DNA of 64,000 bases. Origin: Alphaproteobacteria bacterium. GTDB taxonomy: Bacteria > Pseudomonadota > Alphaproteobacteria > CAAHEQ01 > UBA3637. Positions within the stretch are counted from its first letter, which is position 1. Every line of letters begins with the position of its first letter. This document shows positions 5,267 through 47,695 of the stretch, piece by piece. Position numbers and translations under genes: made by a program. The notes below the pieces were generated by a model. It searched no databases and was not told where the DNA came from. It saw only the letters and a program-made list of their open reading frames with translations. Location of the stretch: NCBI GenBank assembly GCA_045613285.1, contig JAZLAQ010000030.1:28290-92289 (forward strand). Reading direction: 5' to 3'.

Positions 5267-5581
5267 ATGTCAAAAAAGGAGGAAAAAATGACAAATTTTG
5301 CTACAATAGAAAATGTTTTCACACCGGATAAAAAATTAAGTAAAATTGAAATGCTTCGTGCTATTAAATTTGCAATTACTTCTGAATTTGAAGCTATCCA
5401 AATATACCAACAAATTATGGAAAGTTCCAATGATTCCCGTATTGTAAAGGTTCTGGCAGAAATTACAAATGATGAAAAAAATCATGTTGGTGGATTATAT
5501 AAACTTTTGGAATTTTTATCGCCAGAAGATTATAAAGAATATGAACATGGTTATGAAGAAACCATTGAAAATTACAAATGA
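5267..5581 (+). CDS. Small ferritin-like/rubrerythrin-like diiron-motif protein (104 aa); function unknown
   Basis: Two E...ExxH-like segments (SEFEAIQIY and EITNDEKNH) are typical of ferritin-like four-helix bundles. An SD-like AAAAGGAGG sits 6 nt upstream. Confidence 0.45.
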   Translation: MSKKEEKMTNFATIENVFTPDKKLSKIEMLRAIKFAITSEFEAIQIYQQIMESSNDSRIVKVLAEITNDEKNHVGGLYKLLEFLSPEDYKEYEHGYEETIENYK

Positions 5582-9402: not shown

Positions 9403-9978
9403 ATGAAAAAAGCAGAAAATATCAAAGAATTTGTTGAAAAAGTGGATGCATCTAAAAAATTAAATCCCAAGGATTTATCTTCCGATCAGGATTTAACTAT
9501 TGCAATTATGAATTTAATTTCCATTGAAGAACATCTAATGTTTTCTGGTGCTAAAACAGGAAAAGACAGTTTTTTTGATATGATACAAAATATCCGTGAA
9601 TTACGGAAGAATCTGATGTTAAAAGTTATTCCGGCTTATGAGGGTGAAGTTTGGTGTATTTCAAAGCACTTATTAGCCGCCAGTATGCGTTTGATGGAAG
9701 TCGGTACAAAACAACAAAGTATGAATAATAAGGATGAGGCAAATCAATTGTTTAATCAAGCCTATGATTTATACTGTTTGTTTTGGGGATTAAATATGAA
9801 TCTAATTGATACAAAAGATGTCAAATGGATTGAAGATAAATCAGAAACAGTTTCAAAAATTACGGAAAAATTAGCAATTAAAAAAGAAACAATTCCGGAA
9901 GAAAAATCAGAACCATTAACCGGTTTTGCAAAAATGAAAGCATTTATTCGTAATGCTGTCAACTGTTGTATAGAATAA
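9403..9978 (+). CDS. Hypothetical cytoplasmic protein (191 aa), no recognisable domain
   Basis: Clean ORF with an SD (GGAGG) 7 nt upstream. No TM segment or signal peptide. C-terminal CCIE. Confidence 0.5.
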   Translation: MKKAENIKEFVEKVDASKKLNPKDLSSDQDLTIAIMNLISIEEHLMFSGAKTGKDSFFDMIQNIRELRKNLMLKVIPAYEGEVWCISKHLLAASMRLMEVGTKQQSMNNKDEANQLFNQAYDLYCLFWGLNMNLIDTKDVKWIEDKSETVSKITEKLAIKKETIPEEKSEPLTGFAKMKAFIRNAVNCCIE

Positions 9979-18426: not shown

Positions 18427-18924
18427 ATGAATACATTTAAAAAAACAATTTTAACCTTATGTGCCATTGCTGCCATTGCTTTAACACCGACACAATCAGA
18501 GGCACGCCGTCATCATTATCATGGTGGTTTCCGTGGTCATCATCATTACTCTCACCACCACCATCATAGTTTTTGGGGACGTGGTGGTCGCCATTTCTGG
18601 CCTGGTTTCGTAGGTGGTATTGTTGGCGGTACTTTGTTAAGAGGATATACAACGCCTATTTACACAGCACCTGTTGTCTATTCAACGCCTGTTGTAACAA
18701 CTCCAACAGTTCAATATGTACAACAACAACCAGTTTATACAACAAGTCGACAACCTCAAGTAATTTATGTCAATTCTACAACAGAACAGGCGAAACAAGT
18801 AACAACGGAACAACCAAGACAGCAAGAAACAATCGTTTTGGAAGGTCCTGTTACCATTCAAAAGAATAATAGCGGGGATATTATTTTAAGACAAGCCCAA
18901 CAACAAAATGTTCAAACACGATAA
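18427..18924 (+). CDS. Secreted His/Gly-rich protein with a Y/T/P/V/Q-rich low-complexity region (165 aa)
   Basis: Signal peptide (MNTFKKTILTLCAIAAIALTPTQSEA), then RRHHYHGGFRGHHHYSHHHHHSFWGRGGRHFW, then repeats of TP(V/I)(V)Y(S/T)T. AAGGAG SD upstream. Confidence 0.55.
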   Translation: MNTFKKTILTLCAIAAIALTPTQSEARRHHYHGGFRGHHHYSHHHHHSFWGRGGRHFWPGFVGGIVGGTLLRGYTTPIYTAPVVYSTPVVTTPTVQYVQQQPVYTTSRQPQVIYVNSTTEQAKQVTTEQPRQQETIVLEGPVTIQKNNSGDIILRQAQQQNVQTR

Positions 18925-18935
18925 GGAATAACAAA

Positions 18936-19781
18936 ATGAAGACATTAAAATACGTCGCCAGTTTGGCAATAATGGGTACTTTGGTCGGTTGTCAGACGAT
19001 GCCACGGGGTGATATGGAGATGGCCGATAAAGCCAATAAAAGTTTAGCTACAGAAATTGATGCTTTAAAAAATCATCCAAATGCTAAATATAACTATGTT
19101 CGTAAAACAACCGCAGAAGGTGAACAAATCCAAGGACATATTGAATATACAGACAAAAATCTGGGAACAGTTAAAAAAACATTTTCCACCGATGAAAAAG
19201 GTGTCTTTTCTATGACAGAAACCGTTCAAAAAGGATACAATACTCCCTTTGAACAAAATGGTCCTTTGGCAAAAAAAACAGTTGGAATTAAAGTTGAAAA
19301 ATCCGCTTTAACGGATGGTATTTATGCTGGCACTTTAATTCGTGACACTGAAAATACCCGTAAAATTATTGCATCCAATGTCAAAGCAGTGGAAGTCATT
19401 CCTTTTGCTATGGGATATGATTTAAATAAATTTGTTGGTAAAAATGCATATACTTCTAACACTGTTTATGCTGTTGCTGATGATTACAATTTAACTGCTA
19501 TCAAACCGGTGGAAGGTCCTGTCTACGCTAATTTGGCACGAAAAGAACCGACATTTTTTGTCTTATCAGGAAAAGATTTGGTTTCAGTTCCTTATTCTTT
19601 AGGTTCTGTTACTGGTTCTAACGAAGCAAAAGCTTTTGCAAAAGACGGTTCTCTCTTCATTACACCGGCTTTACAAAATAAGCTGATTACAAAAAGTTTT
19701 GTTGATCGTAAAGTTATTTATAAAGAACAAAGAAAGAAAAGAATTCGGAATGTAAGAAAACTTTCCCGAGAAAGAAATTAG
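18936..19781 (+). CDS. Lipoprotein of unknown function (281 aa) with a basic C-terminal tail
   Basis: Lipobox LVGC. Lies 11 nt after the previous gene. C-terminal KEQRKKRIRNVRKLSRERN. Confidence 0.55.
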   Translation: MKTLKYVASLAIMGTLVGCQTMPRGDMEMADKANKSLATEIDALKNHPNAKYNYVRKTTAEGEQIQGHIEYTDKNLGTVKKTFSTDEKGVFSMTETVQKGYNTPFEQNGPLAKKTVGIKVEKSALTDGIYAGTLIRDTENTRKIIASNVKAVEVIPFAMGYDLNKFVGKNAYTSNTVYAVADDYNLTAIKPVEGPVYANLARKEPTFFVLSGKDLVSVPYSLGSVTGSNEAKAFAKDGSLFITPALQNKLITKSFVDRKVIYKEQRKKRIRNVRKLSRERN

Positions 19782-21780: not shown

Positions 21781-23121
21781 TTATTTATTCTTTAAAAAAT
21801 CTGTCAACCAATGAATATTATACTGACCATCTATAAAGTCAGGTTCCGCAATAATTCTTTGATGAAGGGGTATCGTTGTCGGAATTCCTTCAATGACAAA
21901 CTCCTCCAAAGAACGCCGCATCCGCATTAAAACACCGTTTCTAGTCCGACCATGAACAATCAACTTGGCCACCATACTGTCATAATTGGGTGGGACAACA
22001 TAACCCGCATACATTCCTGAATCAACACGAACGTCTAAGCCACCTGGGGTATGCCACTGCCCGATTTGACCGGCACGAGGGATAAAGGTATCAGGATCTT
22101 CCGCATTGATACGACATTCCATTGCATATCCATTAAAACGAATATCATCCTGTGTATACCCCAAAGCGGCACCGCCCGACACACGTATCTGATCACGCAC
22201 AATGTCTACGCCAGTTACAGCTTCAGTAATCGGGTGTTCCACCTGAACACGCGTATTCATTTCCAAGAAATAAAACTGTCCTTTTTCATACAGGAATTCT
22301 ATTGTTCCGACATTTGTATAACCTAACTTTTTCATAGCAGAAACAACTATATTGCCAAGCTGACGCCGTTGTTCTGTATTCAAGGCCGGTGAAGGTGTTT
22401 CCTCTAAAATCTTTTGGTTATTTCGTTGCAACGAACAATCACGTTCACCTAAGTGGACAACATTACCATAATTATCAGCCAAAACCTGAACTTCTATGTG
22501 TCGGGGATTTTTTAAATATTTTTCTAAATAGACAGAATCATTCGCAAAACCGCTTTTTGCCTCTTGCTTGGCCAGTGTAAAAGCATCTGCCATTTCGGTG
22601 GGATTTTCAACGATTTTCATCCCTTTTCCACCACCGCCGGCGGTTGCTTTTATAATAACCGGATATCCGATTTTTTCTGCAATCAGTAAAGCTTCTTGTG
22701 GTGTTTTTACTTCACCGTCCGATCCTGGGATAACCGGTAAACCGGCATCGATAGCAGCCTGCTTAGCGCTGATTTTATCCCCCATCAGACGTATCATCTT
22801 TGGTGTTGGTCCAATAAAAGCTATTCCATGAGCCTGAACCATTTCAGCAAATTCAGCATTTTCTGATAAGAATCCATACCCCGGATGAATGGCATCTGCC
22901 CCTGTCATAATGGCAGCCGAAATAATAGCTGCTCGATTGAGATATGAATCCTTGGCTGGAGCCGGTCCAATACAGATTGCTTCGTCAGCCAATTTAACAT
23001 GCATTGCATTAGAATCAACCGTTGAGTGAACAGCAACGGTTTTAATTCCCATCTCCCGACAAGAACGATGAATTCGCAAAGCGATTTCACCACGATTGGC
23101 TATTAAAACTTTTTCAAACAT
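21781..23121 (-). CDS. accC: Acetyl-CoA carboxylase, biotin carboxylase subunit (446 aa)
   Basis: ATP-grasp biotin carboxylase motifs (MFEKVLIANRGEIA, GGGGKGM, EMNTRVQVEHP). Sits directly downstream of accB. Confidence 0.95.
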   Translation of the reverse strand: MFEKVLIANRGEIALRIHRSCREMGIKTVAVHSTVDSNAMHVKLADEAICIGPAPAKDSYLNRAAIISAAIMTGADAIHPGYGFLSENAEFAEMVQAHGIAFIGPTPKMIRLMGDKISAKQAAIDAGLPVIPGSDGEVKTPQEALLIAEKIGYPVIIKATAGGGGKGMKIVENPTEMADAFTLAKQEAKSGFANDSVYLEKYLKNPRHIEVQVLADNYGNVVHLGERDCSLQRNNQKILEETPSPALNTEQRRQLGNIVVSAMKKLGYTNVGTIEFLYEKGQFYFLEMNTRVQVEHPITEAVTGVDIVRDQIRVSGGAALGYTQDDIRFNGYAMECRINAEDPDTFIPRAGQIGQWHTPGGLDVRVDSGMYAGYVVPPNYDSMVAKLIVHGRTRNGVLMRMRRSLEEFVIEGIPTTIPLHQRIIAEPDFIDGQYNIHWLTDFLKNK

Positions 23122-23123
23122 TT

Positions 23124-23555
23124 TTATTCCACACTGAATAACGGTTGATTGTATTCTACTGGACTACCGGCTTCTACTAAAATTTCAGTAATACGACCGG
23201 CTTTATCTGATTTAATCGGATTAAAGGTTTTCATCGCTTCAACCAAACAAACCGTTTGTCCGACCGACACACGATCACCTACTTTAACAAACGGTAAAGA
23301 TTTTTCATCTTTTGTCAAATATACCACACCAACCATAGGGGATAAAATATAATTTCCCTTTGTTTTTTCAGGTGCCGTTATTTGAGCAGATTGGACAGGT
23401 TGTTGTTGTACACTAACCTGAGGCGATACAGTAGCATTCGATGCTCCATTAATACGCAAGTACATACCGTTTGATTCATATTCAATTTCAGATAAGTTAT
23501 TTTCTTTTAACAGTTTAATTAACTCCTGAATATCATTTTTTTGTTCTTTTTCCAT
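23124..23555 (-). CDS. accB: Biotin carboxyl carrier protein (143 aa)
   Basis: C-terminal biotinyl domain with the EAMK biotin-attachment motif (CLVEAMKTFNPI). Lies upstream of accC with a 2-nt gap. Confidence 0.85.
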   Translation of the reverse strand: MEKEQKNDIQELIKLLKENNLSEIEYESNGMYLRINGASNATVSPQVSVQQQPVQSAQITAPEKTKGNYILSPMVGVVYLTKDEKSLPFVKVGDRVSVGQTVCLVEAMKTFNPIKSDKAGRITEILVEAGSPVEYNQPLFSVE

Positions 23556-23696
23556 AGGAAATCCTTTTTGTTAAAATAAAACTTTTCTGTTTTACACTAT
23601 TTTATAAAAAAAAGCAAGTATAAAAAAATTCTTTTATCTCTTGAAATTTATTTTTAAGTGTGATAATCTTACAAAGATTTATTGATGGAGAAAAAA

Positions 23697-24944
23697 ATGA
23701 ATACTTTTTTTGATTATTTAAAAGAACGTGGTTATGTCTATCAAATGACACATGAAGAGGAGATTAAACAAGCTTTAAATGGGGATAAAAAAATCACTTT
23801 TTATCTGGGAATTGATCCGACAGCAGACAGTCTTCATATCGGACATTTCTTTTCCTTAATGATGTTCAGACATTTACAAAGACAGGGACATCATGGTATT
23901 TTAGTTATCGGAGGGGCAACTGCCTTAGTTGGTGATCCAACAGGAAAATCCGATATGCGTAAAATGATGACCCATGAAACTGTGGCTCATAATGTACAGG
24001 AAGTTAAAAATCTAGCTGCTCGTTTCATTAAAACTGATGGAGATAATCCGGCTTTGATTTTAGATAACTCGGAATGGATAAATAAATTCAATTACGTTGA
24101 TTTTATGCGGTTGGTTGGAACCCACTTCAATGTAAATAAAATGTTAGCATCAGAAGCTTACTCTTCTCGTTTAGCAAATGGCGGTTTGACATTCTTGGAA
24201 ATGGGATATATGTTGATGCAAGCTTACGATTTTGTTTACCTGAACAGAACATATAATTGTGTTTTGGAAATCGGTGGCAGCGATCAATGGGGCAATATTG
24301 TAGCCGGTACAGAACTCAGTCGCAAAATGAACTTCCATGCCGATGGAAAAGCTACGGCAGATTGTCCGGATACATTTGGGTTAACCTGCCCTCTTTTAAT
24401 GACAAAAGAAGGTAAGAAAATGGGTAAAACCGAAAACGGAACACTGTGGGTTGCCCGTGATAAAACAACGACATATGCTTTCTATCAATACTTTTATAAT
24501 ACACCCGATTCAGATACAGAAATGCTGTTGAAACTGTTTACAGATATTCCGACAGATGAAATACAACAAATGTGCCAGAGCAATATTATAGAAGCAAAAA
24601 AACGGATGGCCTATGAAATTACAAAACTTGTTCATGGCGAAGAAGAAGCAAATAAAGCTGTAGAAACGGCCCAATCCTTATTTAAAGGGAATGCTGATTC
24701 CGAAAACGTACCCTCAGCAAGATATGCTGTCGAAAAATTGAAAGAAGGTATTTTAATTGTTGATTTAGCTGTTGAAGTTGGATTATTACCTTCGAAAGGG
24801 GAAGCCCGTCGTTTAATTCAACAAAACGGCTTATCTTTAGATGGAGAAAAAGTTACTGACGCTATGGCGAAAGTTCCAACTGATAAAACGAGTATTATTC
24901 TACAAAAAGGAAAAAAGAACTTTTTAAAAGTTATCTTTGAGTGA
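23697..24944 (+). CDS. tyrS: Tyrosyl-tRNA synthetase. The likely start is the ATG at 23697 (415 aa).
   Basis: Class I HIGH motif (SLHIGH), KMSKS-like KKMGKT and a C-terminal S4-like domain. GGAG lies 8 nt upstream of the ATG at 23697. The track start at 23682 is a TTG 15 nt upstream. Confidence 0.9.
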   Translation: MNTFFDYLKERGYVYQMTHEEEIKQALNGDKKITFYLGIDPTADSLHIGHFFSLMMFRHLQRQGHHGILVIGGATALVGDPTGKSDMRKMMTHETVAHNVQEVKNLAARFIKTDGDNPALILDNSEWINKFNYVDFMRLVGTHFNVNKMLASEAYSSRLANGGLTFLEMGYMLMQAYDFVYLNRTYNCVLEIGGSDQWGNIVAGTELSRKMNFHADGKATADCPDTFGLTCPLLMTKEGKKMGKTENGTLWVARDKTTTYAFYQYFYNTPDSDTEMLLKLFTDIPTDEIQQMCQSNIIEAKKRMAYEITKLVHGEEEANKAVETAQSLFKGNADSENVPSARYAVEKLKEGILIVDLAVEVGLLPSKGEARRLIQQNGLSLDGEKVTDAMAKVPTDKTSIILQKGKKNFLKVIFE

Positions 24945-24977
24945 TTTTTCTTTTGAGGGGGTATAATTAAGAAATGA

Positions 24978-26375
<1,398 letters not shown>

Positions 26376-26786
26376 ATGGAAATGAAACTCCGTATTTTTT
26401 CACCTATAGGCGTTATTTTGGAAACACCGGTTCAACAAATTGATTTTGAATCCATTAGTGGTTTTTTCACTTTACTTCCTAAGCATACGGATATCGTTTC
26501 TGCATTAAAAATCGGTATTTTAACCTATAAAACAAACGATACGATTGCCTATGTTGCTTGTAATAAGGGTGTTTTGGTTAAAAAAAATGATACGGTCTTT
26601 GTTTCAACTAAAATGGCAATTTTAGGAACTGATTTAAAGGAACTGGAAACAAAAATAACTACTGATTTCAAAATGATAGAAGAAGAACGTAAAGAAATAA
26701 ATACAGCTATGGCAAAATTGGAAATCGGTCTGGCAAAAGGTATTATGTCATTAAAAAATATAGGAGAAAACAATGTCGGAATTTGA
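26376..26786 (+). CDS. atpC: ATP synthase epsilon subunit (136 aa)
   Basis: Size, beta-sandwich plus C-terminal helical layout, and its position 0 nt after the atpD stop. Confidence 0.8.
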   Translation: MEMKLRIFSPIGVILETPVQQIDFESISGFFTLLPKHTDIVSALKIGILTYKTNDTIAYVACNKGVLVKKNDTVFVSTKMAILGTDLKELETKITTDFKMIEEERKEINTAMAKLEIGLAKGIMSLKNIGENNVGI

Positions 26787-27087
26787 AAAAGAAAATAAAA
26801 AAACGGCAACTGTTTTAGTCCACAAAGCTAAAGTTATGCAAAAAAGAGAAAATCGCACATTCTTTTTTAATGCTGGTGTTTTGAGTGTTTACGGTTGGCA
26901 GTTATCCATTCCGGTTATATTAGGTGTTATTCTCGGTCGTTTTTTGGATAAAGCTTTTCCTGATACAATTTTTTCATGGACTTTCAATCTTATTTTAATC
27001 GGATTTGCAATAGGCGTTTTTAACGCTAATTATTGGATACATAAAGAAGGCATTATCCCACAACAAAAAAAGAAAGGCAAGAAATGA
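26773..27087 (+). CDS. atpQ: Small two-TM membrane protein at the AtpQ position of N-ATPase operons (104 aa)
   Basis: Two predicted TM helices and a basic C-terminus. Overlaps atpC by 14 nt. Sits between epsilon and the AtpR-like gene exactly as in N-ATPase operons. Confidence 0.6.
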   Translation: MSEFEKENKKTATVLVHKAKVMQKRENRTFFFNAGVLSVYGWQLSIPVILGVILGRFLDKAFPDTIFSWTFNLILIGFAIGVFNANYWIHKEGIIPQQKKKGKK

Positions 27088-27416
27088 ATATAAATCTAGC
27101 TGAATTTATTAAATTTTTTCTTATTGGTATTACCTGTGGATTGGTCTATTTATATTTACTATGGCAAACGGTTAAAGTATTACCAAATGTTAAAAAGAAA
27201 GGTGTTTTCTTATTTACTTCTATGTTTTTAAGAATATTCTTAATGCTTTCTCTGATAGTCGTTTTTGCCAACAATGATTTGAATAAATTTTTAATTATGT
27301 GTTTAGGCTTTATCTTAATCCGTTTCTTCGTTTTAAGATTTACTCGTTTTGGTGGATGCTACGCAACAAGTGATAAACAATTAAAAAAATCTTTTCAAGG
27401 TCAGAGAAAAAAATGA
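27084..27416 (+). CDS. atpR: AtpR/AtpI-like small membrane protein with intramembrane arginines (110 aa)
   Basis: Three hydrophobic segments containing Arg (FLRIFLM, ILIRFFVLRF). 4-nt overlaps on both sides. Positioned immediately before the a subunit. Confidence 0.6.
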   Translation: MNINLAEFIKFFLIGITCGLVYLYLLWQTVKVLPNVKKKGVFLFTSMFLRIFLMLSLIVVFANNDLNKFLIMCLGFILIRFFVLRFTRFGGCYATSDKQLKKSFQGQRKK

Positions 27417-28306
27417 ATACTGTAATAACGCAAATTTCAGGCTACGATACAACAATATCGGTTTTACTTTCAATACTGTGTACCGTCGGATTATGCATCG
27501 GTTGTTGTTATTGGTTAAAAAGTAAAATGGGCCGCGGATTTGGTATTTTGTTGATTATTGCTTCATGGTGGGGAGCTTTCAGTTTAGATAATACGGCGAC
27601 AACAAACAATATTGATTTTGGAAATATGGATGCGATACCTATTTTTAGAATAGGAGATGTAACAATTGGATCAACATTATTTTTCTCGTGGGTTGTTATG
27701 GCAATTTTAGTGATTTGTTCTTGGTTTGTTACACGAAAGTTGAAAACAACTTTGCAGGTTTCTCATACACAGACTGCTCTTGAAATGATTGTTATGACAA
27801 TTCGCACTCAAATTAAAGATATCAGTGGTGATAACCCTGCCCGCTATATGCCAATTATGGGAACTTTCTTTTTATTTATCGGATTATCAAACCTTTTAAC
27901 AATTATTCCAGGTTTCCAAGCTCCAACAGCATCTTTATCCACGACTATGGCTTTCTCATTATGTGTCTTTTTCGCAATGCCTATATACGGTATTAAAAAT
28001 GCTGGTGTTTTAGGATACCTGAAAAAATATGTTGATCCGACACCGATTATGTTGCCTTTAAATATTTTAAGTGATTTTTCATCAACTTTTTCATTAGCCT
28101 TTCGGTTATATGGAAACATGTTGAGTGGTGTTATCATTGCAACGGTCTTGGTAATGTTAGCACCTTTATTGGTTCCACTGCCTTTACAAATTTTGGGACT
28201 AATAACCGGTATGATACAAGCATACATCTTTGCCTTACTGGCAATTGTTTATGTAACTTCTGTCGGACCGAAAAAACAATTCATAGACCATTTAAACTAT
28301 AATTAA
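27413..28306 (+). CDS. atpB: ATP synthase Fo subunit a (297 aa)
   Basis: Polytopic membrane protein with the conserved stator Arg motif (AFRLYGNMLSG) in the penultimate helix. Confidence 0.85.
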   Translation: MNTVITQISGYDTTISVLLSILCTVGLCIGCCYWLKSKMGRGFGILLIIASWWGAFSLDNTATTNNIDFGNMDAIPIFRIGDVTIGSTLFFSWVVMAILVICSWFVTRKLKTTLQVSHTQTALEMIVMTIRTQIKDISGDNPARYMPIMGTFFLFIGLSNLLTIIPGFQAPTASLSTTMAFSLCVFFAMPIYGIKNAGVLGYLKKYVDPTPIMLPLNILSDFSSTFSLAFRLYGNMLSGVIIATVLVMLAPLLVPLPLQILGLITGMIQAYIFALLAIVYVTSVGPKKQFIDHLNYN

Positions 28307-28322
28307 GAAAGGAAAAAAGATT

Positions 28323-28622
28323 ATGGATCCAATTACTTTTATCGGCGGAATGTCTGTTTTATCAGCTGGATTATGTATTGCTATCGGCGGTATCGGACCT
28401 GGATTAGGAGAAGGAAATGCTGCAGCAAATGCGTTACGTGCGATTGCACAACAACCGGATGAAGCTGGAAATATCACCAAAACCTTGTTTATGTCTATGG
28501 CAATGGTTGAATCAACAGCTATTTATGCTTTTATTGTTACAATGATGATTATGTTCTTTAATCCGTTTTGGACAAAAGCTGTTGAAATGGCTGGTCCTGC
28601 CGTACAGATGGTTACCCAATAA
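28323..28622 (+). CDS. atpE: ATP synthase Fo subunit c (99 aa). Hairpin with Glu in helix 1 (GLGEGN) and an ESTxxY motif in helix 2.
   Basis: GIGPGLGEG in helix 1, QQPDEAGN loop, MVESTAIYAFIV in helix 2. The alignment to Na+-binding c subunits (Q32/E65/S66/T67/Y70 spacing) is made from the sequence itself. Confidence 0.85.
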   Translation: MDPITFIGGMSVLSAGLCIAIGGIGPGLGEGNAAANALRAIAQQPDEAGNITKTLFMSMAMVESTAIYAFIVTMMIMFFNPFWTKAVEMAGPAVQMVTQ

Positions 28623-28636
28623 AAAGGAGTTCCCAA

Positions 28637-29410
28637 ATGGGATTTAGTTGGAGTACTTTTTTTGCTCAAATTATCAACCTGTTTATACTGGTCTGGTTGA
28701 TGAAGAAATTTCTATATCATCCGATAATTAATGTTATTACAAAAAGACAGGCTTACATCGAAAATAAGGTTAAAAAAGCCGATGAAGCCGTCAGTAATGC
28801 TAAAAAACAAGAAAAAAAACTGGTTGAACAGGCAAAAAAATGGGATAAAGAAAAACAAAAACGTTTAGACTCATTATCCGATGAAATTGCCAATCTGAAA
28901 AAAGAACAGGAAAATTTTGTTTATGAAGAAATTAATTCTTTACGTCAAAAAATGCAGAATGATTTAAATCGTGAAACGTCTTCTTTACAGTTGGAAATTC
29001 GCGATTTAATGATTAAGAATTTTTTGGAATTATCTCAAAAAGCCATCACTGACTTGTCAGAATTGGCCCCTATGGAACAAGCCTTCAGATTATTCCAAAG
29101 AAAATTTGATTCATTAAAAAAAGAAGGTATTTCATCTATTAAAAAATCCATTAAAAAACAAGAAATAATCAAAATATATTCATCTTCTTCTTTAAGAAAA
29201 AAAGAACAAGAAGATCTAATTGCTTTCATAGGGCAAAAACTAAAATTGAATTCAGAAATCAAGTTTCATTTTGAAGTAAATCCCGATTTGATTTTAGGGC
29301 TGGAAATGATTGTTGGTGAAATCGTTTTAGAATGGAATTTAAAAACTTATTTGGATAATTTTGAGGGAAATCTCAACACGGCCTTATCTAATTTAATTGT
29401 GGCCGATTAG
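28637..29410 (+). CDS. atpF: ATP synthase Fo subunit b, elongated form (257 aa)
   Basis: N-terminal single TM (FFAQIINLFILVWLM), a long charged coiled coil, and an extra ~100-aa C-terminal region. It is followed directly by alpha, 12 nt later, with no delta gene. Confidence 0.8.
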   Translation: MGFSWSTFFAQIINLFILVWLMKKFLYHPIINVITKRQAYIENKVKKADEAVSNAKKQEKKLVEQAKKWDKEKQKRLDSLSDEIANLKKEQENFVYEEINSLRQKMQNDLNRETSSLQLEIRDLMIKNFLELSQKAITDLSELAPMEQAFRLFQRKFDSLKKEGISSIKKSIKKQEIIKIYSSSSLRKKEQEDLIAFIGQKLKLNSEIKFHFEVNPDLILGLEMIVGEIVLEWNLKTYLDNFEGNLNTALSNLIVAD

Positions 29411-29422
29411 AAAGGAAAATAC

Positions 29423-30943
29423 ATGTTAAAAGGTGCATCAAAAGAAGCAACAAAAGTCATCAAGGAAGCTATATCCAAAACAAAAAATGATTTAAAGGTA
29501 TCTGAAGTTAGTACCATCCGTTCTATTTCCGCTGGCACGGCAGAGATATCTGGTCTTTCAAAAGTAAAAATGAACGAATTACTGACATTTCGTGGTGATA
29601 CTGTTGGTATGGTTCAAACTCTTTCTGTTGATAGTGTTGGTGTTGTTTTTCTTACAAATGCAGATCACCTAAAAGCCGGCGATCGTGCAAAACGCACACA
29701 TCAGGTTTTAAGCATTCCTGTTGGAGAAACCCTATTAGGTCGTGTTATCAATCCGTTAGGTCAACCTCTGGATAATAAGGGCATTATACCTACAACGGAA
29801 ACATTACCGGTAGAACAAGACTCGCCTCCGATTATGCATCGGGCACCTGTGGATACCCCCTTACAAACCGGATTAAAAGCTATAGATTCTTTTACCCCTA
29901 TCGGTCGGGGACAACGAGAGTTAATTTTAGGTGACAGACAAACTGGGAAAACAGCGATTGCCTTGGACACAATTATCAATCAAAAGGATACTGGTGTTAT
30001 CTGTATTTATTGTGCTATCGGACAAAGGGCTTCCGGTACGGCACGCGTTATTACGGATTTAGAAAAACATGGTGTTATGGATAATACCATCGTTGTTGTA
30101 GCTTCAGGTGATGACGAAGCCGGCTTACAATATATAGCCCCTTATGCTGCTACATCCATCGGGGAATGGTTTATGGCAAAAGGGAAAGATGTCTTAATTA
30201 TCTATGATGATTTAACTGCTCATGCACGGGCTTATCGTCAGATGTCTTTGTTATTACGGACACCACCTGGACGAGAAGCCTTCCCAGGAGATATTTTTTA
30301 CATACACTCTCGTTTATTGGAACGTTCTACACATTTGCGACCGGAATATGGTGGTGGTTCTTTAACTTCATTACCAATTGTTTCCACAGAAGCCGGTAAT
30401 ATATCTGCCTATATTCCGACAAATATTATTTCCATTACGGACGGACAGATTTACCTATCCACTTCCCTGTTCCAAAAAGGAATTATGCCGGCCATCGATA
30501 CGGGACGCTCTGTTTCCCGTGTCGGGGGTGATGCTCAATTACCGGCTTATCGTAATTTAGTTGGACCATTGAAATTGTTTTTCTCACAATTTGAGGAATT
30601 AGAATCTTTTGCAAAATTCGGAACTCAAATGGATGGAGAAACAGCCAAGCGGTTAAAACGGGGACGTGCTATACGTTCTGTTTTACAACAGATACAATAT
30701 GTCCCTATGCCGGTAGCTGAACAAATTTCCATCTTTTTAGCAACAAATGCCGGCTTATTAGATGATGTTAAGGAAAGTTTGATACCAAAAGCTCAAGAAA
30801 TTATTATTAAAACACTACATCAATCTTTTTCAGCTGAGATTAAAGCTATTTTAAAGAAAGAAAAATTATCACAAGAAGCAAAAGATAAGATGTTAGATGC
30901 CTTTCAAAAAGCACTTAATAACGAAAAAGGACTATATGTATAA
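29423..30943 (+). CDS. atpA: N-type ATPase alpha subunit (506 aa)
   Basis: Walker A GDRQTGKT and alpha-type nucleotide-binding domain motifs. Confidence 0.9.
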
Positions 30944-31833
30944 TGAGTTTAGAAGCCTTAAATAAACGGATAAAAACGACAACCGATTTACGGGATATTG
31001 TTAGTACAATGAAGATGTTATCGTCTGTCAGTATAGGTCCTTATGAAAAGGCTTTAATATCCTTAAACGAATACGGTAAAACAGTTAAGACAGCCTTTAT
31101 CGGTTTAATGAAAGATGATCGGTTTTATTATACACCCCAGCGATTAAAATCAAATTCCCCCAAAACAATCGCTATTGTTATCGGAACGGATAATGGTCTG
31201 GTCGGTCGCTTTAACCGAGATGTCATAACCTACGCCCGTAAAGATTTATCAGAAAATAGTCTAGATAAAGAAGTAACCTTTATTTGTATCGGGAAAAGAT
31301 TAGGACTGTTGGCTGATTCGGCAAAGGTAAAAGTAGCAGCAACTTACCCGATTATGAATTCTCTAAAAGAAATCACAACCATATCATCTATGGTTCTAAT
31401 GAAAATCAATGAACTGATACATGCAGAAAGGGCAGAACAGGTTTTTATTTACTATACAATAAAAAAAACCGGTGAATCACAACGGGTAGAAAAAGTACAA
31501 TTAATGCCCCTTCCCCAACAAGATATGATTTCCTTTAAAAAAGAAAAATGGACAGGACGTACTTTACCTCTTATTGCTGATGATAAAGGAAGTTTGTTTA
31601 CTGCTCTGATACATGAATATCTGACCGTTGTTTTAAGCGGTTCTTTGACATCTTCTCTGGCGGCTGAGCATTATACACGTATGGTCAACATGCAACAGGC
31701 AGAGAAAAATATAGATGAGTCCTTAGAAGCCATGAATATGGATTACCAACAAATTCGTCAAACCAGTATTACGGATGAACTGATTGATATCGTATCCGGT
31801 GCCGAAAGTCTGAAAAAGAAAAAATCAACTTAA
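30943..31833 (+). CDS. atpG: ATP synthase gamma subunit (296 aa)
   Basis: Typical gamma length. The N-terminal helix ([29 protein letters not shown]) and C-terminal helix are conserved. The start overlaps the atpA stop by 1 nt. Confidence 0.85.
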   Translation: MSLEALNKRIKTTTDLRDIVSTMKMLSSVSIGPYEKALISLNEYGKTVKTAFIGLMKDDRFYYTPQRLKSNSPKTIAIVIGTDNGLVGRFNRDVITYARKDLSENSLDKEVTFICIGKRLGLLADSAKVKVAATYPIMNSLKEITTISSMVLMKINELIHAERAEQVFIYYTIKKTGESQRVEKVQLMPLPQQDMISFKKEKWTGRTLPLIADDKGSLFTALIHEYLTVVLSGSLTSSLAAEHYTRMVNMQQAEKNIDESLEAMNMDYQQIRQTSITDELIDIVSGAESLKKKKST

Positions 31834-31908
31834 ATCATTATAACACTTGACATTAGATAAAAAAAAGGATAAAAATAAAAGGGTTCATTTTAATAAGGAG
31901 ATTTTTAA

Positions 31909-32199
31909 ATGATTAAATCTGAATTAGTTGCAGAAGTTGCAAAAAATAATAAACTGACATTTGTCAATGCCGATCGGGTTGTAACAACCGTATTTGATAC
32001 AATTATAAAAAACCTGAAAGCCGGAAAACGTGTTGAATTACGTGGTTTCGGTGTTTTTTCTGTTCGTGTACGTAAACCACGTGTAGGACGTAACCCAAAA
32101 ACAGGTAAAATTGTTCGAGTCGATGAAAAACGTATGCCGTTTTTCCGTGCCGGTCATCGTGTTAAAGTAGCCTTAAATAAAAAAGGTAGCGAAGGCTAA
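31909..32199 (+). CDS. HU/IHF-family nucleoid-associated DNA-binding protein, IHF-like (96 aa)
   Basis: GFGVFSVRVRKPRVGRNPKTG...RMPFFRAG arm motif. The GRNPKTG and F(R/K)(A/P)G signatures resemble IHF subunits more than HU. Confidence 0.85.
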   Translation: MIKSELVAEVAKNNKLTFVNADRVVTTVFDTIIKNLKAGKRVELRGFGVFSVRVRKPRVGRNPKTGKIVRVDEKRMPFFRAGHRVKVALNKKGSEG

Positions 32200-33044
32200 T
32201 GAACTGGATTACCAGACTAACCCGTCCAACGGTTAAGAAAACACATATTCAAAAAGATGTTCCAAACGATTTTTGGGACAGATGTCCTTCTTGCGGTTCT
32301 ATGTTGTTTCATGAAGAAATAGCCAAGTCTGACTATATCTGTCCCAGATGCTCTTATCATTTTCGTCTGCCGACTACACGACGATTGGAAATGATTTTTG
32401 ATAATGAAAAGTATACTTTGGTACAACTACCTAAAATGAAAGAAGATCCACTTCATTTCGTGGATTTGAAGAAGTATACCGATCGCCTAAAAGATGCCCG
32501 TAAAAAAACGCATACAGAGGATGCTATTTTAGTGGCCCATGGTAAAATCGGCGGAAAATCGGCTGTGGTCGGTGTTTTTGACTTTAACTTTATGGGCGGT
32601 TCTATGGGAACAGCCGTCGGGGAAGCCATTGTAACGGCGGCTCAATTAGCCTTACTACAAGAAGCCGCTTTAATTTTAATACCGGCTTCCGGCGGGGCCC
32701 GTATGCAGGAAGGTATTTTATCCTTAATGCAGATGGCTAGAACAACAATAGCCGTTAAAAGATTGAAAAAGAAAAAATTACCCTATGTTGTTATTTTAAC
32801 AAATCCAACAACAGGTGGTGTAACTGCATCCTTTGCTATGTTAGGGGATGTTACTTTGGCAGAACCGGAAGCCATCATCGGTTTTGCCGGTGCACGTGTC
32901 ATTGAACAAACGATACATCAAAAACTGCCACCTGATTTTCAAAAGTCAGAATACCTGCTGGCTCATGGTATGGTGGATCAGGTTGTTCACCGAAAGGAAA
33001 TTCGACCGAGACTGGTACAGTTGCTCAATCTTTTAATGAATTAG
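32199..33044 (+). CDS. accD: Acetyl-CoA carboxylase carboxyltransferase beta subunit (281 aa)
   Basis: N-terminal C4 zinc ribbon (CPSCGSMLFHEEIAKSDYICPRCSYHF) and a carboxyltransferase domain (GGSMG). Confidence 0.9.
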   Translation: MNWITRLTRPTVKKTHIQKDVPNDFWDRCPSCGSMLFHEEIAKSDYICPRCSYHFRLPTTRRLEMIFDNEKYTLVQLPKMKEDPLHFVDLKKYTDRLKDARKKTHTEDAILVAHGKIGGKSAVVGVFDFNFMGGSMGTAVGEAIVTAAQLALLQEAALILIPASGGARMQEGILSLMQMARTTIAVKRLKKKKLPYVVILTNPTTGGVTASFAMLGDVTLAEPEAIIGFAGARVIEQTIHQKLPPDFQKSEYLLAHGMVDQVVHRKEIRPRLVQLLNLLMN

Positions 33045-33094: not shown

Positions 33095-33484
33095 ATGAAA
33101 AAATTTTTATTATTGTTTTTATTACCGTATATGATACCCGAGGTTATGGCCGGTTGTCTGTATAATGGAACAAAGGACTGTAAAGTAGAAAATCCATGCG
33201 GACCGAATGAATTAATGACAATAAAATGGCTTTATGAAGATGGTCAAGTTAAATATGTTTTTGACGGCTGTTTCCCTTGTGATACAGAACAAGCCATAGA
33301 GGTCAGTTGTATCGGGGCTGAAGAAGCACAACGAATCTGTCCCAACAGATATATATTTTGGGATTGCACCCCCTATTCAGTCCTTAATTGTAAAAATAAG
33401 AAATATTTACCAATAACTTCTATGGATAATATCTCTGTTAACAAGAAAGATAAAACATGTTGGGATAACAGTGTCATTCGCTAA
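33095..33484 (+). CDS. Small secreted cysteine-rich protein (129 aa; ~10 Cys in the mature part)
   Basis: Signal peptide (MKKFLLLFLLPYMIPEVMA), then regularly spaced Cys: C..DC, NPC, GC.PC, SC, IC, DC, NC, TC. A GGAG SD lies upstream. Confidence 0.5.
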   Translation: MKKFLLLFLLPYMIPEVMAGCLYNGTKDCKVENPCGPNELMTIKWLYEDGQVKYVFDGCFPCDTEQAIEVSCIGAEEAQRICPNRYIFWDCTPYSVLNCKNKKYLPITSMDNISVNKKDKTCWDNSVIR

Positions 33485-33503: not shown

Positions 33504-33538
33504 AAACACCATCGATTCTACTGATGGTGTTTTTTTTA
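33504..33538. terminator. Bidirectional terminator shared by the convergent Cys-rich and lipase-like genes
   Basis: CACCATC, 10-nt loop (gattctactg), GATGGTG, then T8. Confidence 0.55.
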
Positions 33539-34876
33539 TTGTTTTTGTCTTCTGTTTTGTTTTTTACGCAATGTTGTTTCGGCTACCTTGGACTTATGTT
33601 TTAACAGCGTCGGTTTTCTGTATAAAAACAATAATTTTTTCGGTGGATGTTCCAAATCCTTCGGTAAAGGAATAAAATGTCCGGACGCTTCATTTTCAAC
33701 AGAATTATTCATTGCATTGAATAGAATATACTTTCCCCAACGCAAAGCAATCTTTTGGGCCTGATTAGCCTGACTACAATAAGTGGAAATATGATGTGGC
33801 CCTTCTTTGGTATTATTTTCAAGTGTATTTATCAGTAAAACAGTCTGATTTTTTTGTTCAACGAAATGTGTTTTTAAAAGTCCCCTGTCATCCAAAGGCA
33901 CATCTGCCAATATCGGTCTTAAATATCCCATCATAAAATCATCTTTCGTATTAACCAAATGATAGGAACGGAAATTATTTTTATAATGTTCTTTATCTAA
34001 ATTCGGTGCAATATGTAAGGCCAAAACCTGATTCTGAATACGCTTGACTGTCTGTTTAGAAAAGCCTTTACGAAGCATATCTTTTGTCAGTAATTCAGCG
34101 ATAGCCTGAATAACACTTGATCCATAACTATAACCGATTAAATTCAACCGCCGAAAATTTTTCATCGCCTGCATAACCGGTATTTTTTTACCTTTTGCAT
34201 CTGAATAAAGCGGTCTTAAAAATCTTTCCACAAAATGTTTAATATAAAAAACAGGATGATCAATCGTACTATCTACCTTAAATCTATGAGAAGAAACATA
34301 GTCATTGTACAAATCCCTTTGATTTCCAGGATACCGAACCGATACGGTCTTAATTCCATATAAAGGAACATTATACATATCCATAGTTTTTCTGATTTTT
34401 CGAGCAAAGCCATTAATTAAAGACAATTCAAAATTACCTCGACCAGAAAAAAATAATACAATAGGCTTTTTCAATAGACTATCAGATTCTTTTTCAGGAA
34501 TAACCCTATAATCCAATTTAGTATCTTTATCCTCAGCCATTTGTTCAATAAAAGACATATATGCTGTTTTACCTAATTTTTCCCGGACATCCGATTCTTT
34601 CATACACGCATATAACAAACGTCTTAACGGACGATTGGAAATGCGTCCTTCAACCTGATACCCATCTAATAACTGACAAGGTAATTGTCCATACTTATCA
34701 GGAATACTTGCCAACTCTGGATGATGACTTAATAATATACGGGCATATCTAATCGGAATAGAAAAATTATTTTCTTCGTTTTTTATTAAACTTTGCAATA
34801 AATTATCGCCCTGTTTATCTTTAAATAAAAAATCGCCCTGTTCAATTTTTTTTATGATTTTAGAATATTCTAGCAT
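33536..34876 (-). CDS. Signal-less alpha/beta-hydrolase (lipase/esterase)-like protein, candidate secreted effector (446 aa)
   Basis: GxSxG nucleophile elbow LIGYSYGSSV preceded by an oxyanion-region-like PIVLFFSGRG. A ~140-aa non-catalytic N-terminal region and a basic C-terminal tail (RKKQNRRQKQ). No signal peptide. Confidence 0.5.
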   Translation of the reverse strand: MLEYSKIIKKIEQGDFLFKDKQGDNLLQSLIKNEENNFSIPIRYARILLSHHPELASIPDKYGQLPCQLLDGYQVEGRISNRPLRRLLYACMKESDVREKLGKTAYMSFIEQMAEDKDTKLDYRVIPEKESDSLLKKPIVLFFSGRGNFELSLINGFARKIRKTMDMYNVPLYGIKTVSVRYPGNQRDLYNDYVSSHRFKVDSTIDHPVFYIKHFVERFLRPLYSDAKGKKIPVMQAMKNFRRLNLIGYSYGSSVIQAIAELLTKDMLRKGFSKQTVKRIQNQVLALHIAPNLDKEHYKNNFRSYHLVNTKDDFMMGYLRPILADVPLDDRGLLKTHFVEQKNQTVLLINTLENNTKEGPHHISTYCSQANQAQKIALRWGKYILFNAMNNSVENEASGHFIPLPKDLEHPPKKLLFLYRKPTLLKHKSKVAETTLRKKQNRRQKQ

Positions 34877-45610: not shown

Positions 45611-46487
45611 AAAAATGAAACTGATACAAAAAGTTAAAGGATACTTTGAAAAACATCCAGAAGAAGATAAAGTTATTGAAACAATAGAAGAAATTATGGA
45701 TGAACGTGAAGAACGCGGGGATGATGTTCTGGTTGATCCGGATGAATTACTCTTGTTGAAAAATCTGTTTAAATTACGGGATATTCGAGCGGGACAAATT
45801 ATGATACCTCATATTGATATCATAGGTATTCCAACAACGGCAAATTTATCCGATGTGCGTGATATTGTTATACGGGATAAATTTACACGTCTGCCTGTCT
45901 ATGAAAAAACTCTAGACAACGTTGTCGGCATCGTCCATGTCAAAGATTTACTGTTAAAATTGTTTGAGATGGGAAAAGAGGTTACCGTTCAGGAAGTCAT
46001 GAGTAAATCTGTATTATTTGTACCGGAATCCATTCGGGTTTTAGATCTATTACATGATATGCAAACTAAAAGAACTCAAATGGCTATTGTTATCGATGAA
46101 TACGGTGGAACAGCCGGACTTATTACTTTGGAAGATTTATTGGAAGAAATCGTCGGTGAAATTGAAGATGAACATGATGCCTTGGACAGCCCCCCTATTT
46201 TACGGGAAATAAAGAAAAACCAATGGGATGCCGATGCCCGTATATCCTTAGAAGATTTAGAAAAGACAATCGGACAATTCCTGACACCCAACGAAAGAAC
46301 TTCTGATATTGATACTATTGGTGGTTTGGTATTCCAATTAGCTGGTCGTCTACCTAAACAAAATGAAGTTATTAAGCATTCTTCCGGATTAAAATTCAGA
46401 ATTACACAAGTTGATTCTAGATGTATTCGACAGGTTAAAATAACAAAAACATATACACCAAAGAAAACAAAGACCAAGAAAAATTAA
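45600..46487 (+). CDS. corC: CorC/YbeX-type CBS-pair plus CorC_HlyC domain protein (295 aa)
   Basis: Tandem CBS domains followed by a transporter-associated C-terminal domain. No DUF21 membrane domain. Lies downstream of ybeY. Confidence 0.8.
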   Translation: MWSKKMKLIQKVKGYFEKHPEEDKVIETIEEIMDEREERGDDVLVDPDELLLLKNLFKLRDIRAGQIMIPHIDIIGIPTTANLSDVRDIVIRDKFTRLPVYEKTLDNVVGIVHVKDLLLKLFEMGKEVTVQEVMSKSVLFVPESIRVLDLLHDMQTKRTQMAIVIDEYGGTAGLITLEDLLEEIVGEIEDEHDALDSPPILREIKKNQWDADARISLEDLEKTIGQFLTPNERTSDIDTIGGLVFQLAGRLPKQNEVIKHSSGLKFRITQVDSRCIRQVKITKTYTPKKTKTKKN

Positions 46488-47695
46488 AAGCCAAAACGCT
46501 TTTTGTCTGTTTTGTTATTCTTGTTCAAAGCTAATTTATCCAGAACATGTCCATACAATCTGATATAAAGAAGTTCGTTGGTATTTTCTATTTTTGGTTC
46601 AAATAAAACAGGATTATTTGCAACCGCTGCATTTAAATCTGTTTCTTCCTTTAATTCACATATTCTATCTGAACAGGAAGTATACATGACACTTAACTTC
46701 TGTCCTTCAGAGGAAACAGTATAATTAAATAAAAATGGTCGTTCTTTTGAAATATTAGAAACTGTTACAGAACCAGCTGTTAAAGAACAATTACCATCCA
46801 TACAATTAAACCGGATTGTCTGAGAATTGTTTAATTTCAAAAGAGAAACAGTCGGATTTGGGACAGAACTTTCTACATATTTAAAACCACCTGAAATAGT
46901 ATACGTTGTCGGACAAGAGGCATCACATAAAATATATTCTGAACCAATTAACGGTTCGCCAAAGTTGTCTATATGCCCGTTTCCTTTATTATTACTAACG
47001 GAATCCCAATGGTAAATAGGCGTATTAGCATACGGATAAGAATAGGGTGTCATACAGATTAAAACATTTCTGCTTGTGTCTGAATACCAGTTATCCAATT
47101 TTTCTGAAACAGACGGATAAATTATTCGCTTGCCGGTATCAAAATGTTTTGTAAATCCTGTATATTTTTGTCCGTTATTGATGGCATACGCCTGACCTGC
47201 ACCTGGGATAACATCTTCTAGAATACCACAGACAGTAGAACCATAAGAACGTTTTTGCATTGATCTGAGCCATGCACGTGAAGTATCTGGCCACCAATCT
47301 GGTTGATATCCTGTTGTTAATACATATTGATTATCAGTAGGACAAGAAGATATATTTTCACTTTCATCCAAACAAACCAGCGAGCTGATAAAACCATCAT
47401 CCGGTGTTGAGTTATCCGTTGAAATATCATGGAATCCCCCCTCTTCATTTCCTTTTAAATGAGGGGGTAGCATTTTCCACAGATTATCCGCATTAAAAGT
47501 GTGAAAATCTGCCCCTGACACATTCCAAGTTATCATCTGTTTCATATAATCTTTGGCAGCCTGATGTTGATTCAACAGTGTAACAATGTTTGTTTCCTCT
47601 CGATACATATCAATCTGATAAGAATCACTCCGAGGAAAAAACATATATGTCATAATACTTGCTATAAAAACCAATATACTTGCTAAATAAATCAT
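46484..47695 (-). CDS. Membrane-anchored, Cys-rich periplasmic protein of unknown function (403 aa)
   Basis: A single N-terminal TM (MIYLASILVFIASIMTYMFF), then a Ser/Thr/Asn/Cys-rich domain with several Cys pairs. Monocistronic, convergent with corC and divergent from chrA. Confidence 0.45.
   Translation of the reverse strand: MIYLASILVFIASIMTYMFFPRSDSYQIDMYREETNIVTLLNQHQAAKDYMKQMITWNVSGADFHTFNADNLWKMLPPHLKGNEEGGFHDISTDNSTPDDGFISSLVCLDESENISSCPTDNQYVLTTGYQPDWWPDTSRAWLRSMQKRSYGSTVCGILEDVIPGAGQAYAINNGQKYTGFTKHFDTGKRIIYPSVSEKLDNWYSDTSRNVLICMTPYSYPYANTPIYHWDSVSNNKGNGHIDNFGEPLIGSEYILCDASCPTTYTISGGFKYVESSVPNPTVSLLKLNNSQTIRFNCMDGNCSLTAGSVTVSNISKERPFLFNYTVSSEGQKLSVMYTSCSDRICELKEETDLNAAVANNPVLFEPKIENTNELLYIRLYGHVLDKLALNKNNKTDKKRFGF

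Follow-up and report, generated by a model that had tools for sequence, protein, structure and literature searches.

A two-glutamate c subunit with the Na+ ligands of the F. nucleatum ring, encoded in an N-ATPase operon of a gut or rumen alphaproteobacterium

The open reading frame at 28323-28622 of the window (the whole stretch of 64 kb of DNA that was analysed here) encodes the rotor-ring c subunit of an N-type ("alternate F1Fo") rotary ATPase. Since its ligand set and its helix-1 GxGxGxGxG motif equal those of the Na+-coupled F. nucleatum ring, we predict Na+ as the coupling ion of this N-ATPase, with a probability of roughly 0.7. The gene and the parts of its product considered below are as follows.

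28323..28622, + strand: atpE, c subunit, 99 aa; NF009998 at 117.7 bits (cut-off 116), TIGR03322 alt_F1F0_F0_C at E = 5.7e-35
28389..28415, + strand: helix-1 packing and ion-site motif G23-x-G25-x-G27-x-G29-E30-G31, aligned to F. nucleatum G25xG27xG29xG31-E32-G33
28410-28412, + strand: codon of E30, the second carboxylate; Glu at this column in 116/120 homologs
28503..28526, + strand: helix-2 ion site M61 (backbone O), V62, E63, S64, T65, A66, I67, Y68, aligned to V63, A64, E65, S66, T67, G68, I69, Y70 of 3zk1
28560..28619, + strand: C-terminal tail N80-Q99 after the NP break, with residues 84-92 as the family tail, from tail lengths and MAFFT
28599-28619, + strand: lineage-specific end of the tail, the last ~7 residues, from comparison of tail lengths with 120 homologs

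The gene starts with ATG, has the purine-rich ribosome-binding region GAAAGGAAAAAAGATT 5' of it, and runs for 99 codons and a stop, giving the translation MDPITFIGGMSVLSAGLCIAIGGIGPGLGEGNAAANALRAIAQQPDEAGNITKTLFMSMAMVESTAIYAFIVTMMIMFFNPFWTKAVEMAGPAVQMVTQ. An earlier note on this DNA had recognised a c subunit here and had quoted three strings from it, all of which are present as quoted: GIGPGLGEGN at residues 23-32, MVESTAIYA at 61-69 and NPFWTKAVEMAGPAVQMVTQ at 80-99. The assignment is borne out by the NF009998 and TIGR03322 matches and by the c-rings matched in the PDB, namely those of A. woodii (4bem), S. platensis (2wie), F. nucleatum (3zk1) and I. tartaricus (1yce). An AlphaFold model made with 60 homologs as input is a helical hairpin (pLDDT 90, helices 3-43 and 45-78), and the closest solved folds to it are the c-ring chains 1yce, 6fkf, 4bem, 6tqj and 3zk1. 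Two strain-level contigs, 88-91% identical in DNA, carry atpE with 24-25 nucleotide differences, every one of them synonymous. The gene is intact, real and under purifying selection. A pseudogene or a decaying operon was ruled out, because the nine ORFs of the operon are all intact and the divergence of atpE is synonymous only. An antisense ORF of 62 aa (28292-28480, - strand) was taken for a mechanical ORF, since it lies within a conserved coding gene.

atpE is the sixth of nine contiguous genes in the order atpD-C-Q-R-B-E-F-A-G (24987-31833, + strand), which are translationally coupled, several of them overlapping by their stop and start codons. The other eight are listed here.

24987..26375, + strand: atpD, N-type beta, 462 aa, first gene; TIGR03305 is the best NCBIfam model (E = 2e-224, 745 bits, exception cut-off 752)
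26376..26786, + strand: atpC, epsilon, 136 aa; TIGR03166 alt_F1F0_F1_eps at 106.4 bits (cut-off 100.1)
26773..27087, + strand: atpQ, N-ATPase accessory membrane protein, 104 aa; TIGR02230 ATPase_gene1 at 64.4 bits (cut-off 46.7)
27084..27416, + strand: atpR, N-ATPase-specific membrane protein, 110 aa; weak match to TIGR03165 F1F0_chp_2 (E = 6.3e-12, 45.8 bits, cut-off 55.5)
27413..28306, + strand: atpB, a subunit, 297 aa; TIGR03306 altF1_A and NF004481 over residues 74-283 only, Pfam ATP-synt_A over 90-281
28637..29410, + strand: atpF, long b with a delta-like C-terminus (b-delta fusion), 257 aa; TIGR03321 alt_F1F0_F0_B at E = 1e-40, TIGR01145 ATP_synt_delta over residues 168-244
29423..30943, + strand: atpA, N-type alpha, 506 aa; TIGR03324 alt_F1F0_F1_al at E = 1.4e-216, 720 bits (cut-off 750.5)
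30943..31833, + strand: atpG, gamma, 296 aa, last gene; TIGR03323 alt_F1F0_F1_gam at E = 9.6e-63

This cluster is a complete N-ATPase operon in the sense of Dibrova, Galperin and Mulkidjanian. The alt_F1F0 model is the top NCBIfam model for beta, alpha, gamma, c and b and a close second for epsilon and a, with scores that mostly lie slightly under the strict "exception" cut-offs (745 against 752 for beta, for example). The operon has AtpQ (PF09527/TIGR02230) rather than AtpI, and its AtpR carries Arg50 and Arg80 inside hydrophobic segments; an AtpR (urf2) with two membrane Arg residues is the tell-tale of an N-ATPase operon (Dibrova 2010, PMC2881411). The c subunit has a Glu in the middle of both helices (E30 and E63), as N-ATPase c subunits do, and the a subunit has its stator Arg231 within LAFRLYGNM. 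No separate delta gene (atpH) was found among the operon ORFs, and the identical atpF gene of loci L001/L002 gave a weak match to PF00213 OSCP. Nearly all of the 80 related loci among the matches listed share the order atpDCQRBEFAG. Promoters and terminators predicted around the operon were no more numerous than in shuffled sequence. At its N-terminus the a subunit is also extended by ~73 aa that contain two hydrophobic segments and are specific to the lineage; a homologous extension occurs in locus L006 (66% identity across the whole length), and most other N-ATPase loci lack it.

The register of the ion site was read from a HMMER alignment of the c subunit to the F. nucleatum protein (3zk1), which has an E-value of 5.6e-18 and no gap over residues 22-85. 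In this alignment E30 falls on Glu32, M61 on Val63, E63 on Glu65, S64 on Ser66, T65 on Thr67 and Y68 on Tyr70, and the two glutamates are 33 residues apart in each protein. The ion-site columns of a MAFFT alignment of 123 sequences (120 homologs and three reference rings) agree with it. The earlier note had placed the helix-1 Glu at the Gln32 position and the ESTxxY residues in register, and since neither a misplaced Glu nor an offset by a helical turn was found, that observation is confirmed. The window c subunit has, in register, the full Na+-ligand set of Meier 2009 and Mulkidjanian 2008, that is, Gln/Glu32, Glu65, Ser/Thr66, Thr67 and Tyr70 in I. tartaricus numbering.

How common this site is was counted in the 120 closest database homologs, aligned with MAFFT, and not in the HMMER list of 50% representatives, where the N-type c family collapsed to about one entry (P0069) and multi-hairpin c subunits dominated. 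The helix-1 position is Glu in 116 of the 120 and Gln in the other 4; in helix 2 the transport Glu and the Tyr are present in all 120, the Ser in 119 and the Thr in 116. Glu together with EST was also found in 78 c subunits from the 80 genome loci among the matches listed and the five strain contigs. The two-glutamate and ESTxxY site had been described for N-ATPase c subunits by Dibrova, Galperin and Mulkidjanian in 2010 (PMC2881411), and about 1% of all PF00137 sequences, namely the N-type ones, have a helix-1 Glu with ESTxxY (PMC2881411). The combination that the earlier note had singled out as noteworthy is therefore the norm of N-ATPase c subunits, a published family signature that the note had rediscovered, so the finding is real but ordinary. 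Less usual is the all-Gly GxGxGxGxG of helix 1, in which the third Gly is replaced by Ala in 80 of the 120 relatives.

It had also been held that the ion specificity cannot be read from the sequence. This is too pessimistic, since a ring with the same ligands has been crystallised with Na+: in F. nucleatum crystals obtained at two pH values, Na+ is bound by Glu32, the Val63 carbonyl oxygen, Glu65, Ser66 and a water that Thr67 keeps in place, and free-energy calculations together with transport assays showed that Glu32 stays protonated and that Na+ alone is translocated (PMC3692424). N-type c subunits with Glu and ESTxxY have been predicted to be Na+-specific, and the usual rule is that the loss of any ligand abolishes this specificity (PMC2881411). 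The N-ATPase of Aphanothece halophytica, the only one assayed as a whole enzyme, was Na+-coupled according to the account given of it in PMC5376962, and the cyanobacterial N-type c subunits in loci L022, L026, L041 and L084 have the same GEG...(V)ESTAIY site. In the ProAD collection, sorting by motif assigned 914 of 1807 N-ATPases to Na+ and predicted H+ for 893 (PMC11738941).

That last figure, about half of the N-ATPases, is one argument for the alternative that the window ring is effectively H+-coupled, like that of B. pseudomallei, with E30 as merely a protonated hydrogen-bond donor and the enzyme as an ATP-driven H+ pump that would serve pH homeostasis where fermentation makes the gut niche acidic. 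Among N-type c-rings, that of B. pseudomallei alone has been studied biochemically; it proved H+-selective although it has two carboxylates, and Na+ coupling had been predicted for it from sequence before H+ selectivity was measured (PMC5376962). The earlier note was right that this Burkholderia ring is large and H+-selective (c17, PMC5376962), but the ring is not of the same kind: it reads E61-T62-M63-x-x-Y66 and AxGxAxAxG where the window protein has ESTxxY and GxGxGxGxG. Overall, the interpretation given in that note is partly supported, its alignment being right, its novelty overstated and its Burkholderia analogy imprecise. Whereas Burkholderia lacks two of the Na+ ligands (T62, M63), the window protein retains every one of them (E30, E63, S64, T65 and Y68), the identical set binds and translocates Na+ alone in F. 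nucleatum, and the conservation of S64 (119/120) and T65 (116/120) is hard to explain unless these residues are needed to coordinate Na+ and water. Among gut Alphaproteobacteria, at least one relative, Acetobacter sp. CAG:977 (locus L032), no longer has the Ser and Thr ligands (ETGxxY), which shows that a ring in the gut habitat need not bind Na+. The neighbours of the ligands also differ from those of F. nucleatum, with M61 for V63, V62 for A64 and A66 for G68, and these substitutions could shift the ion selectivity. Because prediction from sequence has failed once and because V62, A66 and M61 differ, we consider H+ coupling unlikely but keep it in play, with Na+ as the better prediction. To our knowledge every c-ring has some intrinsic selectivity for H+, and which ion is effectively coupled would therefore be set by the local pH and Na+ concentration.

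With Na+ as the coupling ion, the enzyme would operate as follows. Each hairpin would contribute a two-carboxylate Na+ site of the F. nucleatum type, with one Na+ site per subunit interface. E63 would be the carboxylate of the transported ion, locked by Y68, and E30 the second carboxylate, presumably protonated constitutively, which would both ligate Na+ and donate a hydrogen bond to E63. The direct shell would be finished by S64 O-gamma and by the M61 backbone carbonyl of the neighbouring subunit, and T65 would hold the fifth ligand, a water. Subunit a would give the half-channels and the stator Arg231. ATP hydrolysis in alpha3beta3 would turn the gamma-epsilon-c rotor, expelling one Na+ per c subunit, and the enzyme would provide sodium-motive force and Na+ homeostasis in a Na+-rich gut (~0.1 M Na+). 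We infer this direction because N-ATPases are described in the literature as "always second" to a true ATP synthase; most likely, the enzyme works as an ATP-driven Na+ export pump.

The ring may have about eleven subunits, because GxGxGxGxG is the motif of both c11 Na+ rings that have been solved (I. tartaricus and F. nucleatum) and not of the Ala-rich c17 ring, a motif from which stoichiometry is predicted only weakly. Elsewhere in the window lies an ADP-forming acetyl-CoA synthetase-type gene, which, with the gut-derived relatives, is compatible with a fermenter that uses the enzyme as a pump and supports it weakly. No respiratory genes were seen among the window ORFs scanned, and no partners of a Na+ cycle (Rnf, Nqr, Na+ decarboxylases, antiporters) within the 64-kb window.

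The c subunit ends in a tail that, by standard c-subunit topology, would lie on the periplasmic side. The earlier note had called it a C-terminal extension of ~20 residues. It does make the protein longer than typical c subunits, by ~11 residues beyond those of I. tartaricus and F. nucleatum, but 93 of the 120 homologs also have 9 residues after NP(F/I)W (typically NYAVEMAAK) against 16 in the window protein, so most of the "extension" is a family trait and only 7 residues, relative to the N-type norm (99 against a modal 92 aa), are specific to the lineage. In the AlphaFold model the tail forms a short third helix (81-98) after the NP break, and the confidence decreases towards its end, to a pLDDT of 64 for the last 10 residues.

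That low confidence, and the fact that most homologs stop 7 residues sooner, would be expected if the extra residues were an artefact of annotation or assembly, for instance through a frameshift or the loss of a stop codon. Against this, the identical 99-aa protein is found on five independent metagenomic contigs from different samples, and on the contigs that are 88-91% identical in DNA the changes are synonymous only, those in tail codons 92, 93 and 98 included, which leaves an artefact extremely improbable. We also rejected an origin of the tail by stop-codon loss and read-through into the spacer: atpE and the start of atpF are 14 nt apart, with an AAAGGAG ribosome-binding site, and short-tail relatives show this same distance, so the tail does not come from reading into the spacer, and the divergence between strains is synonymous only. 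The ~7 lineage-specific residues are real and under purifying selection.

The host is an alphaproteobacterium of the gut or rumen whose DNA is AT-rich and which has not been cultured. The c subunits most similar to that of the window reach 84% identity and are either metagenomic proteins or belong to MAGs labelled "Alphaproteobacteria bacterium"; among the matches listed, the best locus in the species-representative genome set is 78% identical, and the best loci are from sheep rumen, roe-deer caecum, sheep rectum, buffalo caecum and human-gut-type MAGs. GC content is ~35% across the window.

At least seven gut or rumen Alphaproteobacteria MAG loci have the same neighbours around the operon, with accC-accB and/or tyrS upstream and hup-accD downstream; the syntenic relatives include RGIG7089, RGIG3823, RGIG6380, RGIG7351, SIG60, SGB_5241 and UBA3768.

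The identities of the atp genes and of the flanking genes fall off together across these syntenic loci, which argues for vertical inheritance within the clade. Elsewhere, N-ATPase operons are mostly reported to move by lateral transfer. The synteny raised the possibility that the N-ATPase is the main, possibly the only, rotary ATPase of the lineage, inherited vertically, and not an accessory pump. It would then either make ATP as a Na+-driven synthase or, in a fermenter, act as the primary source of the membrane potential, and would break the rule that these enzymes are "always second" and laterally transferred. Consistent with such a role are the housekeeping neighbourhood conserved in at least seven loci with jointly declining identities, and a GC content of the operon (0.36) that equals that of the surrounding DNA (~0.35). 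N-only genomes are known elsewhere, in the Chloroflexota genus T78 (PMC11738941), and some reduced gut Alphaproteobacteria have been reported to have an "F0F1" ATP synthase without a respiratory chain (PMC12306168). In surveys, however, N-ATPases stand second beside an F- or A-type enzyme in nearly all genomes (PMC2881411, PMC11738941), deletion of the N-ATPase of M. acetivorans left ATP synthesis unaffected, and the genomic view here spans 64 kb. No second atp operon was found in the 64-kb window or in the ±10-kb flanks of the related loci among the matches listed, and the names RF32, CAG-977 and Rs-D84 were not found in the ProAD supplementary text. We regard a main or sole ATPase as improbable, and equally doubtful is the wider proposal that in this gut and rumen clade the N-ATPase has become a fixed core operon (accBC/tyrS - hup/accD), maybe the sole rotary ATPase, with additions to the a and c subunits, serving as primary Na+ pump or Na+-driven ATP synthase. 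An ATP-driven export pump remains the preferred reading.

The window c subunit is one more member of the N-ATPases, and the solved structure of a ring with identical ligands allows its likely ion to be predicted. As an N-type ring with the exact F. nucleatum ligands and Gly motif, set against that of Burkholderia (H+, c17, degraded motif), it offers a natural test case for a question that bears on the ~1,800 ProAD enzymes: do N-ATPases truly split into Na+ and H+ classes along the motif? The conserved chromosomal position raises a second question, whether the N-ATPase is a core, possibly the sole, rotary ATPase of gut and rumen Alphaproteobacteria.

Among known systems, the N-ATPase AtpE family (TIGR03322/NF009998) shares with the window the operon order, AtpQ and AtpR, the b-delta fusion, Glu in both helices with ESTxxY, the loop AQQPDE, and NPFW followed by a short tail. 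The window differs in its 7 additional tail residues, its all-Gly helix 1 and its conserved housekeeping synteny, and its host is a gut or rumen alphaproteobacterium, whereas the hosts first emphasised for N-ATPases were marine or halotolerant.

The F. nucleatum c11 ring (3zk1/3zk2, Schulz et al. 2013) has the same side-chain ligands, spacing and GxGxGxGxG as the window protein, at 41% identity over the structural alignment. It belongs to an F-type ATP synthase, encoded by a standard atp operon and making ATP from a Na+ gradient, and lacks the extra C-terminal helix of the window protein, which also has M61, V62 and A66 in place of V63, A64 and G68. Since the window operon is N-type, the site would work like that of F. 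nucleatum in a protein outside that F-type lineage. The Na+ c11 ring of I. tartaricus and P. modestum (1yce) has ESTxxY, GxGxGxGxG and the hairpin fold in common with the window, but it has a single carboxylate, with Gln32 where the window has Glu30, an F-type operon and no extended C-terminal helix.

The N-type c17 ring of B. pseudomallei (Schulz et al. 2017, cryo-EM at 6.1 A) is like the window protein in its N-ATPase operon, its helix-1 Glu30 and the Tyr one turn after the transport Glu. Relative to the Na+ set, its site has Ser replaced by Thr and the water-holding Thr by Met; this ring (E61-T62-M63-x-x-Y66, AxGxAxAxG) was found to be H+-selective by NCD-4 (PMC5376962), in contrast to the ESTxxY and GxGxGxGxG of the window protein, and its two glutamates are 31 residues apart instead of 33, the window loop being two residues longer. 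The A. halophytica enzyme (Soontharapirakkul et al. 2011, as related in PMC5376962) is N-type like that of the window and was reported there to be Na+-coupled and to take part in Na+ extrusion; it comes from a cyanobacterium of hypersaline habitat, whereas the window host is an alphaproteobacterium of the gut or rumen.

Searching the 50%-identity representative library with the c subunit returned mostly multi-hairpin c subunits, in which the hairpin is repeated in tandem 2-13 times; for example, a database protein of 968 aa (P0150) aligned to the query in 13 matched stretches, and the single-hairpin N-type c family amounts to roughly one representative in this library. The N-type c subunit of another gut alphaproteobacterium, Acetobacter sp. 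CAG:977 (locus L032, scaffold HF994935.1, 10001-10279), carries ETGxxY in place of ESTxxY: the helix-1 Glu is retained and two Na+ ligands are lost. The N-ATPase operon of this locus lies outside the accBC/hup-accD synteny. Similar degradation of the ion site was seen in two proteins returned by the c-subunit searches, P0073 (ETG) and P0088 (ESG).

The a subunit begins with an extension:

27413-27631, plus strand: N-terminal extension of atpB (first ~73 codons, ~73 aa), with two hydrophobic segments before the conserved core

Among the matches listed, a homologous extension was found only in the related locus L006, from the sheep-rumen MAG RGIG7089 (66% identity, full length), and in the strain-level metagenomic contig L001, while in most other N-ATPase loci the conserved core lies within a few residues of the atpB start. 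RGIG7089, the closest named relative among the matches listed, also has a Cys-rich 143-aa ORF between atpQ and atpR (8241-8672 of L006, plus strand), a counterpart of which is absent from the window.

Two other genes of the window are:

53248-55329, plus strand: 693-aa protein with CoA-binding, succinyl-CoA-ligase-like and ATP-grasp_5 domains
5267-5581, plus strand: 104-aa EncFtn-like/rubrerythrin-like protein (weak Pfam matches near the cut-off)

The predicted domain architecture of the former is that of an ADP-forming acetyl-CoA synthetase, and hints at a fermentative lifestyle with substrate-level phosphorylation. Small proteins of the EncFtn-like/rubrerythrin-like type are typical of anaerobes. 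Two further ORFs lie on one strand, the larger directly 5' of the smaller, and six more gave no Pfam match:

59185-61947, minus strand: 920-aa predicted membrane protein (Pfam: C-terminal HEAT repeats only)
58753-59175, minus strand: 140-aa cyclic-nucleotide-binding-domain protein
33095-33484, plus strand: 129-aa protein, rich in Cys and resembling a secreted protein, encoded immediately after accD
33536-34876, minus strand: 446-aa protein
46484-47695, minus strand: 403-aa protein
18427-18924, plus strand: 165-aa protein, rich in His, whose N-terminus resembles a signal sequence
18936-19781, plus strand: ORF
9403-9978, plus strand: ORF

The N-ATPase operon itself is embedded among housekeeping genes:

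21781-33044: accC-accB, tyrS, atpDCQRBEFAG, hup, accD

The same arrangement, with accC-accB and/or tyrS on the upstream side and hup-accD on the downstream side, was found, among the matches listed, in seven loci from gut/rumen Alphaproteobacteria MAGs (L006, L007, L008, L011, L012, L014 and L024). Such conserved housekeeping synteny indicates that the operon has been vertically inherited in these Alphaproteobacteria, a pattern that contrasts with the usual description of the N-ATPase operon as accessory and laterally transferred.
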